Shown one piece after another: positions 136-4,737 of a stretch of 4,737 nucleotides of DNA. Under the pieces are notes generated by a model that saw only the letters and a list, made by a program, of their open reading frames with translations, had not been told where the DNA came from and did not search any database. How positions within the stretch are numbered: position 1 is the first letter of the stretch; every line of letters starts with the position of its first letter. Source of the stretch: a virus (Duplodnaviria > Heunggongvirae > Uroviricota > Caudoviricetes); IMG/VR virus record IMGVR_UViG_2695420382_000015; one strand, given 5' to 3'. A program made the position numbers and the translations under genes.

Positions 136-173
136 NNNNNNNNNNNNNNNNNNNNNNNNNNNNNNNNNNNNNN
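136..173. other. Run of 38 N (masked or unresolved bases, assembly gap)
   Basis: Literal n characters in the sequence; nothing can be read here. Confidence 0.95.
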
Positions 174-449
174 CCAGTGTTATTTTTAGCCAGTTTAAAT
201 TGAACCTTCAAATTATAGAGCACTTATAAATAACAGCCGTTAATATAAATTGGCTAATAGATTTATTTTTATTCAGCCAAGAGCCATGAATAGGATTCGA
301 TAGAAAAAAGTTCAGATAAAAATAGAGATCTACTTCACAAATCAAACGAGAAACCAAAACTTACATCTTGAAATAATCACATTGATTAGATGAATATTTA
401 TCGCGCAGTGACATCATTTTTTAATAATAGTTCAAAAAAAGGGCTCACG
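174..449 (+). promoter_or_regulatory. A+T-rich upstream or leader region of the porin gene with a Shine-Dalgarno-like AAGGG at 439-443; promoter hexamers not confidently placed
   Basis: Strongly A+T-rich non-coding stretch immediately 5' of the porin start at 450. TTGAAA at 368-373 and TTGATT at 382-387 are -35-like but lack a convincing -10 partner. Confidence 0.3.
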
Positions 450-1532
450 ATGAAAAAATTAACAGTGGCAATTTCTGCTGTAGCTGCATCAGTACTGATG
501 GCGATGTCTGCTCAGGCAGCTGAAATTTATAATAAAGACAGTAACAAGCTGGATCTGTACGGGAAAGTTAATGCTAAGCACTACTTCTCCTCTAATGATG
601 CAGATGATGGTGATACTACTTATGCCCGTCTTGGCTTCAAAGGTGAAACCCAAATCAACGATCAACTGACTGGTTTCGGTCAGTGGGAATATGAATTCAA
701 AGGCAACCGCGCTGAATCTCAAGGTTCCTCCAAAGATAAAACCCGTCTTGCCTTCGCTGGCCTGAAATTCGGTGACTACGGCTCCATCGATTACGGCCGT
801 AACTACGGTGTAGCATACGACATCGGTGCGTGGACTGACGTCCTGCCAGAATTCGGTGGTGACACTTGGACTCAAACAGATGTGTTCATGACTGGTCGCA
901 CCACTGGTGTTGCAACTTATCGTAACAACGACTTCTTTGGTCTGGTTGATGGTCTGAACTTTGCTGCTCAGTATCAGGGTAAAAATGACCGCACTGACGT
1001 AACTGAAGCTAATGGTGATGGTTTCGGTTTCTCCACTACTTATGAGTATGAAGGATTCGGTGTAGGTGCAACCTATGCTAAATCTGACCGCACTAATAAT
1101 CAGGTTATCTACGGTAACAACAGCCTGAATGCATCTGGTCAAAATGCTGAAGTATGGGCAGCTGGTCTGAAATATGATGCGAACAACATCTATCTGGCTA
1201 CCACCTATTCTGAAACCCAGAACATGACTGTTTTTGGTAATAACCATATTGCCAACAAAGCACAAAACTTCGAAGTAGTTGCACAATATCAGTTCGACTT
1301 CGGTCTGCGTCCGTCCGTTGCTTACCTGCAATCTAAAGGAAAAGACTTGGGTGCGTGGGGTGATCAGGACCTGGTTGAATATATTGATGTAGGTGCAACC
1401 TATTACTTCAACAAAAATATGTCCACTTTTGTTGATTACAAAATCAACCTGATTGATAAGAGCGATTTCACGAAAGCATCTGGCGTTGCTACCGATGATA
1501 TCGTTGCTGTAGGTATGGTTTACCAGTTCTAA
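450..1532 (+). CDS. nmpC: Outer-membrane general porin of the OmpC/OmpF/PhoE family, phage-borne NmpC/Lc/OmpD-like (360 aa precursor)
   Basis: Start ATG at 450 preceded by AAGGG. Signal peptide [23 protein letters not shown] with an AQA cleavage motif, then mature [16 protein letters not shown] typical of enterobacterial porins. C-terminal region has GLRPSVAY and [14 protein letters not shown] and ends in YQF (terminal Phe, beta-barrel signature). The ORF track's 390 start adds 20 residues ahead of the signal peptide and is rejected. Identification is recalled similarity, not a search. Confidence 0.93.
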
Positions 1533-1720: not shown

Positions 1721-2104
1721 TTAATTAGAGTTATTAACAACGATATCCATCTCTAACCGGATATCTAATGCCATTAACATCCCTTCAATTATGCCCTCAG
1801 CCTTCTGTAACCTTTTCCCGATATAACCATCAGAGCAGCAATGCTTACCTGCCAGTGACATGAATGTCATACCGACTACATAATAATCTACTAATAAATC
1901 GTGCAAATCGCTGTTGTTCTTTTTCAGACGGGCCATGCACCCGCAAATAATCATCGCGTCATCGTCACAACATTGCGGGCGAGATTTTACTTTTGAAGTA
2001 ATTAATCCCTTAAAACCGGCGGCAATGGACGACCAGGTCACATCTTCATGATTATTAGCCGCCCACGCTCCCCAACGCTCAAGAACCATCTGAATATCAC
2101 GCAT
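1721..2104 (-). CDS. quuD: Late-gene antitermination protein Q (phage 82 / DLP12 QuuD type), 127 aa
   Basis: Translation [62 protein letters not shown]... is recognised as the DLP12 QuuD / Q82-family protein. ATG at 2104-2102 with GGAG at 2115-2112 is preferred over the ORF track's TTG start at 2119. Stop TAA at 1721-1723. Confidence 0.9.
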
Positions 2105-2189
2105 CAACTTACTCCACAAAAATCAGACCAGAACGCCAATTACAAGCAAAAATCAACAAAACAGTATTAGTTGATTGTTATCTCTGACT

Positions 2190-2330
2190 TCATACTCCTG
2201 CTCCTGTCAGGGTTTTGGCGTAATTCTTCAGTATTCGGTAATCGGTCAAAACAGAACCGGGGAAACGATATAAGCGCAGATGCCCCCAGCGGTGGCGAAG
2301 AAGTTCTGCCATATAAAACTCAAACATCAT
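2190..2330 (-). CDS. ylcG: Small DLP12-type protein YlcG (46 aa), unknown function
   Basis: Hand translation of the minus strand gives [46 protein letters not shown], matching my recollection of YlcG between rusA and quuD. Its ATG (2330-2328) overlaps the rusA stop TGA (2329-2327). It is too short to be in the ORF track. Confidence 0.75.
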
Positions 2331-2689
2331 TCATTCCCCATTTCGGTGATGGTCAGTTCCAGCCTCCCACCTTTGGTAACAGGCATCTTCACAACGCGGT
2401 AATCAACGACCTGAGCATCATCCAGCCAGAAACCTGCTTTGGTGAGTGCGTCAAAAGCGGCTTTTTGCAGATTATCCAGGTCACGGCGACGGCGATCCGG
2501 CATGTGGCACTCAATACGGATTTTCACTGGCATAGCCAGGCCGATATCCAGCATTGCGTTTTTAATGATTCGGGTGACGTTATCGCGGTATGCCTGCCCT
2601 TCTGCGCTGATGTGTGTGCGCCCGCGATTATGGCGGTAATAGCGGTTATTGCTCGGAGGCCAGGGTAATGTGATGCTGTAGGTATTCAC
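2327..2689 (-). CDS. rusA: Holliday-junction resolvase RusA (crossover junction endodeoxyribonuclease), 120 aa
   Basis: Translation [120 protein letters not shown] is recognised as RusA. The initiation codon is GTG at 2689-2687, overlapping the ybcO stop (GTGA). Confidence 0.93.
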
Positions 2690-2976
2690 GCCTTAATAAC
2701 CCCCTCTTTCAGCCAGATAACCTGCGTTCTCGCCATACCTTCCAGCGCGCATTCTTTTGCATACTCAGCATCGACAAAATATGTGCGGCGGTCGATTTCG
2801 TCGTGACAGGCAGAACATGCAATGGTGGCAATCAGGTCTGGCGGTTTGATACCGGTACCGCACAATCCAGCCAGCCGGATATGTGCCAGTACTGACGTTT
2901 CAGGATTGCCATTACATACGCCAGGGATTCTTACCTGGCATTCCCGACCACGCGCTGCTTTTCTCAAATCAGCCAT
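2686..2976 (-). CDS. ybcO: YbcO-type (DUF1364) Cys-rich putative nuclease of the lambdoid nin region, 96 aa
   Basis: Translation [96 protein letters not shown]. Start ATG at 2976-2974 with GGAGGA 5 nt upstream (cctcc at 2981-2985 on the + strand); the ORF track's longer start at 3015 is rejected. Multiple Cys pairs suggest metal binding. Confidence 0.87.
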
Positions 2977-3139
2977 GATTCCTCCTTGCTGCCAGTCGCA
3001 ACCATTTTTTATCAACCAGGCTAGCGGTATATCCGAGCAGTGTTGGTATTTCGGATGGCTTCAGCTCAGGCTTACGCTTACGACGATTTGATACTCTGTA
3101 GATGTGCCCGTTCATGACACGAATAAGCGGTGTAGCCAT
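2969..3139 (-). CDS. ninE: NinE-family small basic protein (56 aa)
   Basis: Hand translation gives [59 protein letters not shown] at 3139-3137 shares one base with the ybcN stop (TAATG), and the 3' end overlaps the ybcO start by 8 nt. Absent from the ORF track because it is short. Confidence 0.8.
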   Translation of the reverse strand: MATPLIRVMNGHIYRVSNRRKRKPELKPSEIPTLLGYTASLVDKKWLRLAARRNHG

Positions 3140-3594
3140 TACGCCTCCTGCTTATCGCGCAGCTGCTGGTATTCACAGCTCTGCGGAATTGTCAGGTGGC
3201 AGCCGATATTCATCGCCCAGGCTTCGACTTTGCACAGGAAGATGTACATCTCGCCGGTTTCCAGCTCTGACGTATGGCGGAGGGATTGGACGGTGGTGAC
3301 CTCGCCGGACACGACATCTACACGGTCTTTGCTTTCGTAGCCGAGATAGGTGTGCTTCATCGCGTCTTTGACCCACTCAGGCGTAGCGAAGGTCTTGCCG
3401 CGGGCGATGAGATATTCGCTGATCTCCGTGTACCACATGTGGCTGAGCGCGTTCTGCGACAGGCTGCGCTTCTCGCGCCACGGCTTAACCTGCAGGCGTA
3501 AGCATTGCCCGGCATCCAGCAATGGCTGAATCTGCTGGCCGATGGCCGCGAAGTTACCGCGATGGAGTTTGATGCCGTCTACTGGCAGAGTCAT
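3139..3594 (-). CDS. ybcN: YbcN / NinB-family recombination-associated DNA-binding protein (151 aa)
   Basis: Translation MTLPVDGIKLHRGNFAAIGQQIQPLLDAGQCLRLQVKPWREKRSLSQNALSHMWYTEISEYL... The RSLSQNALSHMW core resembles the NinB (orf family) motif. ATG at 3594-3592 with GGGAGG 4-5 nt upstream. Confidence 0.88.
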   Translation of the reverse strand: MTLPVDGIKLHRGNFAAIGQQIQPLLDAGQCLRLQVKPWREKRSLSQNALSHMWYTEISEYLIARGKTFATPEWVKDAMKHTYLGYESKDRVDVVSGEVTTVQSLRHTSELETGEMYIFLCKVEAWAMNIGCHLTIPQSCEYQQLRDKQEA

Positions 3595-3686
3595 ACGGCC
3601 TCCCTAACGGAAACCGCAGAATGCAGAAAATCGCAGGTGCATTTCTGCATCTGTGACAAGGTGATGAGTTCAGATTGTGGTCGCAT
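3591..3686 (-). CDS. ylcH: Small ORF (31 aa) in the position of DLP12 ylcH, translationally coupled to ybcN
   Basis: Minus-strand ORF MRPQSELITLSQMQKCTCDFLHSAVSVREAV with AAGGGGA upstream of ATG (3686-3684) and a TGA stop overlapping the ybcN ATG (ATGA). Assignment to ylcH rests on position and size; I do not recall the reference sequence exactly. Confidence 0.5.
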   Translation of the reverse strand: MRPQSELITLSQMQKCTCDFLHSAVSVREAV

Positions 3687-3705
3687 TTAAGTCCCCTTAA
3701 ATGCG
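3682..3705 (-). promoter_or_regulatory. Hairpin (9 bp stem, 6-nt loop) enclosing the Shine-Dalgarno and start codon of the ylcH-like ORF
   Basis: Arms cgcatttaa (3682-3690) and ttaaatgcg (3697-3705) are perfect complements. On the minus-strand RNA the loop GGGGAC carries the SD and the ATG lies in the 3' arm. No U tract on either side, so it is not a classical terminator. Confidence 0.25.
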
Positions 3706-3792
3706 CAGAAGTCACCGGAGTTGTTCAGGCTCCGATGAGAGGATTATGGCGGATTGATTACGATAAATCAAAACTATCTTGAAGCCAAAACA

Positions 3793-3822
3793 GTGATCTT
3801 CGCTTTAAAAACCTTGTATACT
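3793..3822 (+). promoter_or_regulatory. Candidate sigma70-type promoter for the A+T-rich cassette (-10-like TATACT at 3817-3822; weak -35-like GTGATC at 3793-3798)
   Basis: The only reasonable -10 match upstream of the cassette's first gene on the + strand; the -35 element is poor. Purely sequence-pattern based. Confidence 0.2.
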
Positions 3823-3858
3823 TTCACCTAATCACAGCCAGAACTATGGATCTAACCA

Positions 3859-4236
3859 ATGACCAACAAAGAAAACAAAGATAAATATATTAACAAGTTC
3901 AAGAAAGAGCTTTCAAAATATATACAACCAACTGCTGGAGTGGACATTCAATTATTTAACTCTAAGGATGGTGGTGGTGTAATTAAAGCCACTTTGAATA
4001 GAAGTGGAAAAAGAAAATCATCTATTGCTGGTAATTTTACTAAATTAGGTGAGGCAATTACCTCGAGTGGGCAGAGGGTTTTTGGTGGTGATCTATCAAA
4101 TGTGAATTTTTACGGAACAAATACGATTTTTGATGGAGATACAATATTTTTAATTAAATCACCTGATTCAGAGGAGTGGTCATCACAAAAAGCTTCCAAA
4201 GACGTAGAGGGCATCGTATTTGGAGGGAAAAAATGA
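3859..4236 (+). CDS. Hypothetical protein, 125 aa, Lys/Gly-rich, predicted soluble; first gene of a two-gene A+T-rich cassette
   Basis: Uninterrupted ORF with an in-frame TAA two codons upstream of the ATG at 3859 and a weak GGA 8 nt upstream. Codon usage and composition differ strongly from the flanking phage genes. No family recognised. Stop TGA (4234-4236) overlaps the next gene's ATG. Confidence 0.55.
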   Translation: MTNKENKDKYINKFKKELSKYIQPTAGVDIQLFNSKDGGGVIKATLNRSGKRKSSIAGNFTKLGEAITSSGQRVFGGDLSNVNFYGTNTIFDGDTIFLIKSPDSEEWSSQKASKDVEGIVFGGKK

Positions 4237-4661
4237 TTAACATTACTACTAAGGATGGCACTCAAGTCAGTGGTGAAGTAAGAGATCTAGTAATTCTTCT
4301 TGAAACTGATGGAAAAACGGTGTCTGATTATTTGCAGCCAATCCCTCCCAAAAAAGATACACACTGGAGCATGATTTTCATTCCGGTAGCAATTTATATA
4401 CTACTTAATCTTGTATACATTATTGCTCACCCATTATTTCCTGAAAAATATCTAAAAACATCAACATCTATATTTCTATTCATTTCCTTCATATTAAGTG
4501 CAATAGTAGCATATTTTGTTTTCCATAAGCATAAATCTGCCACTCTATCCATATGCAGCTTAGTGTTCTTAGTGTTAATTGTAGGTGCTAACGTAGGGTT
4601 TATCAGTTACAGCGACCTAACACAAAAAGCGACGCAAAAATTAGATAGTTTGTCTAAATAA
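4233..4661 (+). CDS. Hypothetical small membrane protein, 142 aa: about 65-residue soluble N-terminal domain followed by three predicted transmembrane helices
   Basis: ATG at 4233-4235 with GGAGG at 4222-4226 (6-nt spacer), overlapping the upstream stop (ATGA). Hydrophobic segments WSMIFIPVAIYILLNLVYIIA, IFLFISFILSAIVAYFVF and ICSLVFLVLIVGANVGFISY are separated by short charged loops. The ORF track's 4176 start lacks an RBS and runs inside the upstream gene. Confidence 0.6.
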   Translation: MINITTKDGTQVSGEVRDLVILLETDGKTVSDYLQPIPPKKDTHWSMIFIPVAIYILLNLVYIIAHPLFPEKYLKTSTSIFLFISFILSAIVAYFVFHKHKSATLSICSLVFLVLIVGANVGFISYSDLTQKATQKLDSLSK

Positions 4662-4668
4662 TTATGTT

Positions 4669-4689
4669 GCCATGCGAAGTATGCATGGC
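4669..4689 (+). repeat. Inverted repeat (7 bp stem gccatgc/gcatggc, 7-nt loop) just 3' of the cassette's second gene
   Basis: Read directly; no U tract follows, so terminator function is uncertain. A second short palindrome ccatttaaaatgg lies at 4703-4715. Confidence 0.2.
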
Positions 4690-4737
4690 TGCATGTCTGC
4701 CTTCCATTTAAAATGGGCTAAGACCTATAACCCTAAA

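Follow-up and report, generated by a model that had tools for sequence, protein, structure and literature searches.

In phage lambda, RexA and RexB form a prophage-expressed abortive-infection system, and RexB is a multi-pass inner-membrane protein of 144 amino acids (aa) that has been proposed to be an ion channel. Other two-gene abortive-infection (Abi) or toxin-antitoxin (TA) modules with a membrane component, such as lactococcal AbiT, CptA/YgfX-CptB/SdhE and SpoIISA-SpoIISB, are small overlapping pairs on mobile elements that combine a membrane protein with a small soluble protein, and the exclusion proteins HK97 gp15, P22 SieA and T4 Imm act as single membrane proteins. This study describes the gene pair orfA-orfB in a viral stretch of 4,737 nucleotides (nt) from IMG/VR record IMGVR_UViG_2695420382_000015, hereafter the window, which is part of a DLP12-like lambdoid prophage of Escherichia coli. 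The pair was found to be a real, selected and strictly paired module of one soluble and one three-pass membrane protein, mobile between temperate phages and small plasmids. Our leading, although tentative, interpretation is that the two genes form a hitherto undescribed module of Enterobacteriaceae, with orfB as the component in the inner membrane, and that this module most likely protects the host cell against phage. The pair resembles a familiar kind of two-gene membrane-associated defence or abortive-infection system, and many candidate defence systems still await a mechanism.

All 28 loci retrieved contained both genes, adjacent, in the same order and with overlapping stop and start codons. 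These loci include plasmid contigs, IMG/VR prophage contigs, and lambdoid prophages of Klebsiella and Enterobacter whose replication and nin modules differ considerably. The preliminary description of the window had proposed that orfB is the second gene of a two-gene prophage cargo cassette, and this strict co-occurrence bears it out. Four co-diverged subtypes were distinguished: the window copies share 76, 43 and 35% identity (orfA) and 66, 36 and 34% identity (orfB) with the other three, and the two subtypes found on plasmids are 31-38% identical to each other. Overall, divergence among the four subtypes extends to 31-45% identity. Because the two genes co-occur strictly and have diverged together, these sequence comparisons strongly support a functional link between them. 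The ratio of nonsynonymous to synonymous substitution rates, calculated against orthologues at 66% and 90% identity, was 0.07-0.09 for orfA and orfB alike, indicating strong purifying selection. The hosts were E. coli, Shigella, Enterobacter and Klebsiella. All known copies come either from prophages, contained in genome assemblies or IMG/VR, or from plasmid contigs of draft or metagenomic origin. As no match was obtained among INPHARED phages (DNA and tblastn searches), in PLSDB (tblastn with both plasmid subtypes) or among GTDB representative genomes, the family must be rare.

With regard to the gene itself, an open reading frame (ORF) of 142 codons is unlikely to arise by chance in DNA of 34% GC. 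The ATG at 4233 is a credible start codon, since it is preceded by a GGAGGG Shine-Dalgarno sequence, overlaps the orfA stop codon as ATGA, and opens an N-terminus (MI.ITTKDG) that is invariant from this methionine in all close homologues. The ATGA overlap also implies translational coupling. A GTG at 4176, given as the orfB start in a mechanically produced ORF list, was rejected, as that stretch lies inside the orfA coding sequence.

The first description of orfB, as a small membrane protein in which three helices follow a soluble N-terminal domain, agrees with hydropathy, shuffling, structure prediction and all subtypes. Kyte-Doolittle windows of 19 residues reach 2.5 in three separate stretches, a pattern found in 0 of 2000 composition-preserving shuffles of orfB. 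The best three 19-residue segments gave sums of -0.43, -2.30 and -0.14 on the Hessa scale, and the three hydrophobic cores are kept in all four divergent subtypes. The AlphaFold2 (AF2) model of the monomer comprises three long helices, at residues 44-68, 71-100 and 103-141, with a predicted local distance difference test score (pLDDT) of about 75-82 in these parts; the alignment was shallow and the mean pLDDT 67.7. The C-terminal tail was modelled as an extension of helix 3, and the N-terminal domain as a beta-hairpin (residues 2-14) followed by a helix (residues 16-25) at low confidence (pLDDT about 52). The estimate of about 65 hydrophilic residues ahead of the helices was wrong: there are about 44, and the first transmembrane segment (TM1) begins at W45.

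The best-kept parts of orfB are not the helices but the soluble N-terminal domain and the C-terminal tail. In a pair of homologues with 66% identity overall, residues 1-36 are 86% identical and the tail 88%, while the linker (residues 37-44) shows 0% and TM1 44% identity. Within the helices, P51, N59, Y62, Y94, N120, G122 and Y126 are invariant across all subtypes.

The loop after the second helix had been noted as basic, which suggested a cytoplasmic location. The HKHKSATLS sequence is indeed present at residues 98-106, and its cytoplasmic placement is favoured, although the positive-inside count is ambiguous. Because the net charge of loop 2 is +2 in every one of the four subtypes, whereas that of loop 1 is +1, -1, -1 and -1, we favour an N-in/C-out orientation in which the N-terminal domain would be cytoplasmic. 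This placement fits the location of orfA, which has neither a signal peptide nor a hydrophobic segment (maximum 19-residue Kyte-Doolittle value 0.43) and must therefore be cytoplasmic. The AF2 model of orfA has an alpha/beta fold with a pLDDT of 58.5. orfA is basic (isoelectric point, pI, 9.5) and the N-terminal domain of orfB is acidic (pI 4.9), a charge complementarity which we count in favour of our interpretation.

A small multi-pass inner-membrane protein of a prophage, encoded opposite to the lytic strand, might plausibly be expressed from the prophage, and its conserved hydrophilic C-terminal tail could face the periplasm. Both features would suit a non-lethal superinfection exclusion in which orfB blocks entry of the incoming genome in the manner of HK97 gp15, P22 SieA or T4 Imm, with orfA as an accessory or stabiliser. 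The solitary action of these proteins leaves the strict cytoplasmic partner and the conserved cytoplasmic N-terminal domain of orfB unexplained, and no homology to such proteins was found in PHROGs or PADLOC. We therefore regard this explanation as quite unlikely.

One close parallel in overall layout is RexAB, which shares with orfA-orfB the location of two genes in a lambdoid prophage opposite to the lytic strand, the combination of a cytoplasmic partner with a membrane protein of about 140 aa, the position of the soluble gene first, and the proposed logic of a soluble sensor that gates a membrane component. The proteins themselves differ. The hhalign probability between RexB and orfB is 1.8% over 19 columns, and RexB has four transmembrane segments compared with three in orfB, which has in addition the 44-aa N-terminal domain. 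For RexA and orfA the probability is 0.1%, and the lengths are 279 and 125 aa, respectively. Whereas rexAB lies by cI and is co-transcribed with it, orfA-orfB lies between P and ybcN and also occurs on plasmids. Class I holins of the lambda S type (about 100 aa) are likewise small, with three transmembrane segments and a hydrophilic charged C-terminal tail. In contrast to these, orfB lies outside the lysis cassette and has a conserved N-terminal domain and an obligate upstream partner, and the hhalign probability is 1.1%. No PADLOC Abi model and no Pfam family that would connect the pair with modules of the AbiT, CptA or SpoIISA type was matched, and the domain order is different, as orfB has its soluble domain first and its three transmembrane segments after it.

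Sequence searches placed both proteins in small families of their own. A k-mer and HMMER search of 5.8 billion proteins returned 17 orfB clusters, all from Enterobacteriaceae and all with at least 63% identity. An exhaustive profile search of 1.84 billion representatives returned only seven orfB matches, including P0032 and P0034, which are distant full-length relatives at 34-35% identity. The picture was the same for orfA, for which a profile search added a subtype at 43% identity (P0062). Both proteins match PHROG families along their full length, orfB matching phrog_16940 (1-142/142, E 2.3e-96) and orfA phrog_18061 (1-125/125, E 9.3e-85); both families are annotated as being of unknown function. 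A check for well-known housekeeping membrane families placed orfB in none of them: its best Pfam match was 7TMR-DISM_7TM, at 21.4 bits against a cut-off of 29, and its best NCBIfam match reached 12 bits against a cut-off of 33. orfA had no Pfam, NCBIfam or PADLOC match, and PADLOC contained no component family for orfA or orfB (E<=1) or for their plasmid-subtype homologues (E<=0.01). A sequence search of the PDB with both profiles gave nothing usable, with no orfB match below E 0.3.

Several candidate leads were discarded. The name 'VIT1/CCC1 family Fe2+/Mn2+ transporter', given to one homologue by the Joint Genome Institute, is unsupported by Pfam. P0036, a protein of 571 aa, contains four tandem repeats of about 36 aa with 'NVRDLVKKFENEGLTVEDYL', which match orfB residues 12-40 at E 3.5e-5 and resemble residues 15-34 (EVRDLVILLETDGKTVSDYL). 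It has a sigma-70 region 4 domain and otherwise scattered sub-threshold matches to helix-turn-helix-like Pfam families, and the similarity was taken as motif-level only. Literature searches on accessions, PHROG identifiers, lambdoid hotspots, Col plasmids and Kiwa returned no account of orfA-orfB in the library searched. The Tai paper (PMC11364771) proved unrelated and makes no mention of a transmembrane protein.

The plasmid copies provide the context for a role in defence. Two very divergent subtypes of the pair were found on small (about 3.5-8 kb) Col(Ye4449)-type Klebsiella plasmids, directly 3' of a PF03090/PriCT_1 rep gene, which they overlap by 7-11 nt, and upstream of mobC or rop. According to pairwise alignment, homology between plasmids breaks inside rep (at about codons 237-262) and returns 5-13 nt past the orfB stop codon. 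Around other cargos it likewise returns only a few nt from where the last cargo gene stops. The interval concerned, here called the slot, extends from the 3' third of rep to a conserved stretch of about 160 nt upstream of mobC (L119-L122, L008-L010, L124, L125, L127, L128, L130, L132, L134 and L032). Both plasmid subtypes of orfA-orfB lie in it; the window copy belongs to a prophage and lies outside.

On other plasmids of this group, the slot, with an identical right border, was found to carry Kiwa (KwaA 6e-121, KwaB 1e-143, with KwaB split into two ORFs), an AIPR/AbiU-type protein (4e-23), an OLD/GajA-like ATPase-Toprim protein (6e-19), DarT1 with a NADAR antitoxin, a ThsB-like TIR protein (7e-12) with a 235-aa partner of no known family, a ResIII/DEAD helicase with a 77-aa protein, a dynamin-like GTPase, or an uncharacterised 253-aa protein (x253). 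It was also found empty. The same rep occurs in 277 PLSDB records, and the slot sample comprises about ten hand-picked plasmids; four more are cut by the record origin within the slot. On this small hand-picked sample, the rep-mobC slot is a hotspot of defence cassettes, with orfA-orfB among its alternative occupants. As this slot is common to Kiwa, AbiU/AIPR, OLD-like, DarT1-NADAR and TIR cargo, a role of orfA-orfB in phage defence or in conflict between mobile elements is well supported by context.

Rep is 80-85% identical across plasmids whose orfA-orfB subtypes are only 31-38% identical, which argues that the cassettes were exchanged rather than inherited together with rep. The plasmid subtypes, which were the only cargos measured, have a GC content of 33-37% compared with about 50% for rep. 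This exchange bears on the possibility that the pair serves lysogenic conversion or host physiology without any link to phage, for example as a small transporter or channel with its regulator, or as a tether between replication and the membrane. The same prophage interval elsewhere carries non-defence cargo, namely the efflux pump gene emrE and ybcL/ybcM, and on plasmids the pair overlaps rep and is co-transcribed with it. Nevertheless, the cassette has been swapped without regard to rep, one and the same rep being functional beside quite unrelated cargo or beside no cargo at all. As, in addition, no transporter family scored above its cut-off, a host function of this kind appears very unlikely.

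The presence of genuine Kiwa, with its transmembrane KwaA and soluble KwaB, in the identical slot and with the same 11-nt overlap with rep raises the question of polarity. Kiwa, like orfA-orfB, pairs one multi-pass membrane protein with one soluble protein. By analogy, orfB could be a membrane sensor or anchor that perceives phage attachment, DNA injection or envelope perturbation, and orfA the output, giving defence without membrane damage. Once set free, for example, orfA might bind to nucleic acid of the phage or to a factor for replication or transcription. The basic pI of orfA, the preferential conservation of the N-terminal domain and C-terminal tail of orfB, as expected of interaction or sensing surfaces, and the proximity of the pair to replication genes in prophage and plasmids are all compatible with such a polarity. 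However, orfA has 125 residues without a recognisable catalytic or nucleic-acid-binding domain, and the invariant asparagines and glycines inside TM1 and TM3 would rather be expected of a pore or of an interface between oligomer subunits. Furthermore, neither protein matched the KwaA or KwaB (DUF4868) profiles, for which the Kiwa of the slot served as a positive control. The gene order of Kiwa is also the opposite, with the membrane protein first, and its proteins of 218 and about 380 aa (the latter being the KwaB model length) are larger than orfB and orfA. We consider the Kiwa-like polarity as a whole unlikely.

Natural disruptions were found in both genes. orfB is frameshifted beside an intact orfA in two IMG/VR prophages (L024 and L028), and in three plasmid contigs related to one another (L117, L118 and L123) a Tn3-family insertion leaves only 44 aa of it. 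The sole disruption of orfA is that in E. coli CV839-06 (L035:2221-3078), where the insertion sequence (IS) IS1A lies inside the gene and leaves a 49-aa stub beside an intact orfB, so that this isolate is a partial knockout of natural origin. The numbers are small, and the bias towards loss of orfB fits with orfB being the costly component.

This bias would also be compatible with a TA or addiction module that stabilises the prophage or plasmid, in which orfB would be a membrane toxin and orfA its labile antitoxin, with no dedicated anti-phage role. Two small genes with an ATGA overlap, located on prophages and plasmids and distributed patchily, have the classical architecture of a type II TA module, and DarT1-NADAR, itself a TA system, occupies the same slot of a sibling plasmid. 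In contrast to type II TA modules, orfA has no Pfam or NCBIfam domain of the helix-turn-helix, ribbon-helix-helix, AbrB or Phd type, and the aligned upstream regions contain no conserved operator-like palindrome. Upstream of rep, several sibling plasmids already have a separate module of the RelE/ParE-NadS, HigBA or Phd-YoeB type, so that the slot is free for different cargo, and the other occupants of the slot are mostly defence systems that are not TA modules. The isolate with IS1 in orfA, moreover, keeps orfB intact. We thus hold an addiction module to be improbable.

Our interpretation goes further in assuming that orfB, which had been put forward at first as a candidate membrane-acting effector, is a membrane-damaging effector under the control of orfA, exerted through the conserved N-terminal domain in a Rex-like logic. 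The contact between the two proteins, the N-in topology, the trigger and the membrane-damaging output are all inferred. In such a mechanism, a promoter of the pair itself would drive its expression in the lysogen, and the rep operon would do so on plasmids. On the cytoplasmic side of the inner membrane, the basic orfA would bind the N-terminal domain of orfB, which is acidic and nearly invariant. Upon infection, a phage-derived cue would alter this interaction. The three-helix bundles of orfB, with their conserved asparagine, glycine and tyrosine residues in TM1 and TM3, could then oligomerise or open. The membrane would depolarise and the infection abort, or entry of phage DNA would be blocked.

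Several points weigh against this interpretation. The slot argument is one of guilt by association, drawn from about ten hand-picked plasmids in which x253, the helicase and the GTPase are unknown or only weakly defence-like. Among the sampled E. coli prophages, the intervals between P and ybcN/ninB contain no evident defence gene and no enrichment of such genes, their occupants all being on the lytic strand, so that the inference of defence rests on the plasmid slot. No homology to a known effector, sensor, toxin or antitoxin was found in Pfam, NCBIfam, PADLOC, PHROGs or PDB or in the comparisons with RexAB and holins. The defence catalogue used was PADLOC-DB v2.0.0 (2023), and systems named later are outside its scope. 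Fold searches against BFVD and PDB returned nothing significant with models of low confidence (pLDDT 67.7 for orfB, 58.5 for orfA). Counts of lysine and arginine that include the lysine-rich C-terminal tail are ambiguous with respect to topology, which charge counts do not settle. Finally, the IS1-broken orfA beside an intact orfB counters the idea of orfA as an indispensable antidote, unless the insertion silences orfB. This IS1 should be polar on orfB, and the isolate therefore neither proves nor disproves an antidote role.

A more far-reaching statement, which we regard as possible but doubtful, is that orfA-orfB is a new minimal two-component anti-phage system of 267 aa combined, distributed over lambdoid prophages and small mobilisable plasmids. 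In it, a small basic partner would gate a nearly invariant 36-residue cytoplasmic domain fused to a three-helix membrane module, and the system would be mechanistically independent of RexAB, Kiwa and the catalogued Abi and TA families. As a defence system, orfA-orfB would be among the smallest two-component membrane-associated systems known. If this reading is true, the pair, with no more than three helices, a soluble domain of 44 aa and a partner of 125 aa, would offer a tractable model of an infection-triggered membrane protein, and the rep-mobC interval would be an undescribed, sharply bounded defence hotspot to mine, in particular for x253, the 143-aa and 235-aa proteins described below (x143 and x235), and the pair of helicase and zinc-finger-like protein. 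Since temperate phages and mobilisable plasmids of 3-8 kb spread readily, and the E. coli, Shigella, Enterobacter and Klebsiella hosts are of clinical relevance, such a system would bear on host range in phage therapy. Whatever orfA-orfB does, candidate defence genes can be sought with little effort in the plasmid slot, which is compact.

The features of the window are listed in Table 1.

Table 1. Position of orfB, its parts, orfA, associated signals and neighbouring genes in the window.
Feature	Position	Strand	Remarks
orfB	4233..4661	+	142 aa, three-pass inner-membrane protein
N-terminal soluble domain, aa 1-44	4233..4364	+	aa 1-36 nearly invariant core, aa 37-44 variable linker
TM1, aa 45-69	4365..4439	+	W45 first residue; P51, N59 and Y62 invariant in all subtypes
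TM2, aa 80-97	4470..4523	+	Y94 and F95 invariant
Basic loop 2, HKHKSATLS, aa 98-106	4524..4550	+	Probably cytoplasmic
TM3, aa 107-126	4551..4610	+	G-x-N-x-G motif (G118, N120, G122); N120, G122 and Y126 invariant
Hydrophilic conserved C-terminal tail, SDLTQKATQKLDSLSK, aa 127-142	4611..4658	+	
orfA	3859..4236	+	125 aa, soluble, basic (pI 9.5) partner protein
Cassette-specific upstream region with putative promoter	3774..3858	+	Starts where prophage homology ends
Shine-Dalgarno sequence GGAGGG of orfB	4222-4227	+	Read from sequence; within 3' end of orfA, 5 nt before ATG 4233
7-bp hairpin GCCATGC-N7-GCATGGC	4670..4690	+	Read from sequence; just 3' of orfB stop, without T-run after it
OmpC/NmpC-type porin gene	390-1532	+	
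Q antiterminator gene	1721-2119	-	
rusA	2327-2689	-	
ybcO	2686-3015	-	
ninE	2969-3139	-	
YbcN/NinB-like gene	3139-3594	-	

In the prophage, orfA-orfB is a two-gene unit located past ybcN and oriented against the lytic genes. It is followed, in the complete E. coli A7 genome, by the gene for replication protein P. The pair is therefore antisense within the early-right operon, in the interval from P to ybcN, which holds ren in lambda. The replication genes of E. coli A7 separate the pair from the repressor, at a distance of about 2.7 kb, and the lysis genes essD/rrrD lie about 4 kb away on the other strand, with rz likewise elsewhere in the prophage. Of 5426 complete E. coli genomes, 46 contain the full unit at no less than 99% identity, whereas its flanks are common. 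The match to other DLP12-like prophages ends at about window position 3773 (about position 635 of the query 3139-4737), and the GC content of the pair is 34%, compared with 51-58% in the adjoining rusA, ybcO and ybcN.

In the sampled genomes, the interval from P to ybcN/ninB carried ren alone, ren with emrE, ylcJ and ybcK (and in some cases ybcL and ybcM), or IS elements. orfA-orfB is unusual there in being antisense and in having about 85 bp of upstream sequence of its own. A census of the region upstream of DUF1367/NinB in 80 Klebsiella prophages showed it to be extremely mosaic (65 clusters), with no usable hotspot signal. Same-strand Ead/Ea22-like ORFs dominate this region, and orfA-orfB was present in one of the 80 prophages.

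The upstream region of the cassette contains a -10-like TATACT at 3817-3822, which is kept as TATGAT at an equal distance from the ATG in the Klebsiella variant with 76% identity. A consensus scan called no complete sigma-70 site upstream of orfA; the conserved element suggests that the pair may have its own promoter in the prophage. The hairpin just 3' of orfB was not called as a terminator by the scan.

The slot itself has further features. The last part of rep, about 70 codons for the C-terminus, varies together with the cargo, and between rep and the first cargo gene there is an overlap of 4-20 nt. No paper was found on a hotspot between rep and mobC in Col(Ye4449)-type plasmids. Four unannotated proteins are encoded in it: x253 (L034:1755-2516, plus strand); x143, upstream of DarT1 (L032:2009-2440, minus strand); x235, beside the TIR gene (L127:1223-1930, plus strand); and the 77-aa zinc-finger-like protein that follows the helicase (L124:4755-4988, plus strand). 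None had a significant Pfam or PADLOC match, the best being that of the 77-aa protein, at 18 bits where the cut-off is 25, and all four are candidates for further defence components. One 8.6-kb ENA metagenome contig (L007) joins a plasmid part, consisting of a rep fragment, orfA, orfB and rop, to Bacteroidota-type genes for a TonB-dependent receptor, a BACON-domain protein and a non-specific endonuclease, and is probably an assembly chimera.

Other observations concern the surrounding prophage. A run of 38 N (masked or unresolved) occupies window positions 136-173, in an AT-rich stretch upstream of the porin gene. A 31-codon ORF at 3591-3686 on the minus strand overlaps the ybcN start and is the counterpart of the small 'hypothetical protein', similar to ylcH, that the annotations of K-12 and other genomes show at this place. 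Of the P gene (L001:10041-10754), most other lambdoid prophages keep only the 5' 329 nt (at 92-95% identity). The 3' half of P, next to the cassette, was replaced together with it, which places the mosaic junction on this side inside P, past the end of the window. Outside the window, in the E. coli A7 prophage (L001:13497-15145), the repressor is directly followed by two overlapping genes, one for an ImmA/IrrE metallopeptidase and one for a DUF4411 protein. They occupy the position of rexAB in lambda and may form another prophage-expressed conflict module. Finally, a scan of 3560-4737 gave four terminator-like sites, where 0.6 would be expected. Terminator-like hairpins with T-runs lie on the minus strand at 4715-4733 and 3614-3649, one site being just downstream of P, before the antisense cassette, and two just upstream of ylcH-ybcN. 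These sites may limit early-right read-through over the antisense cassette unless transcription is antiterminated.

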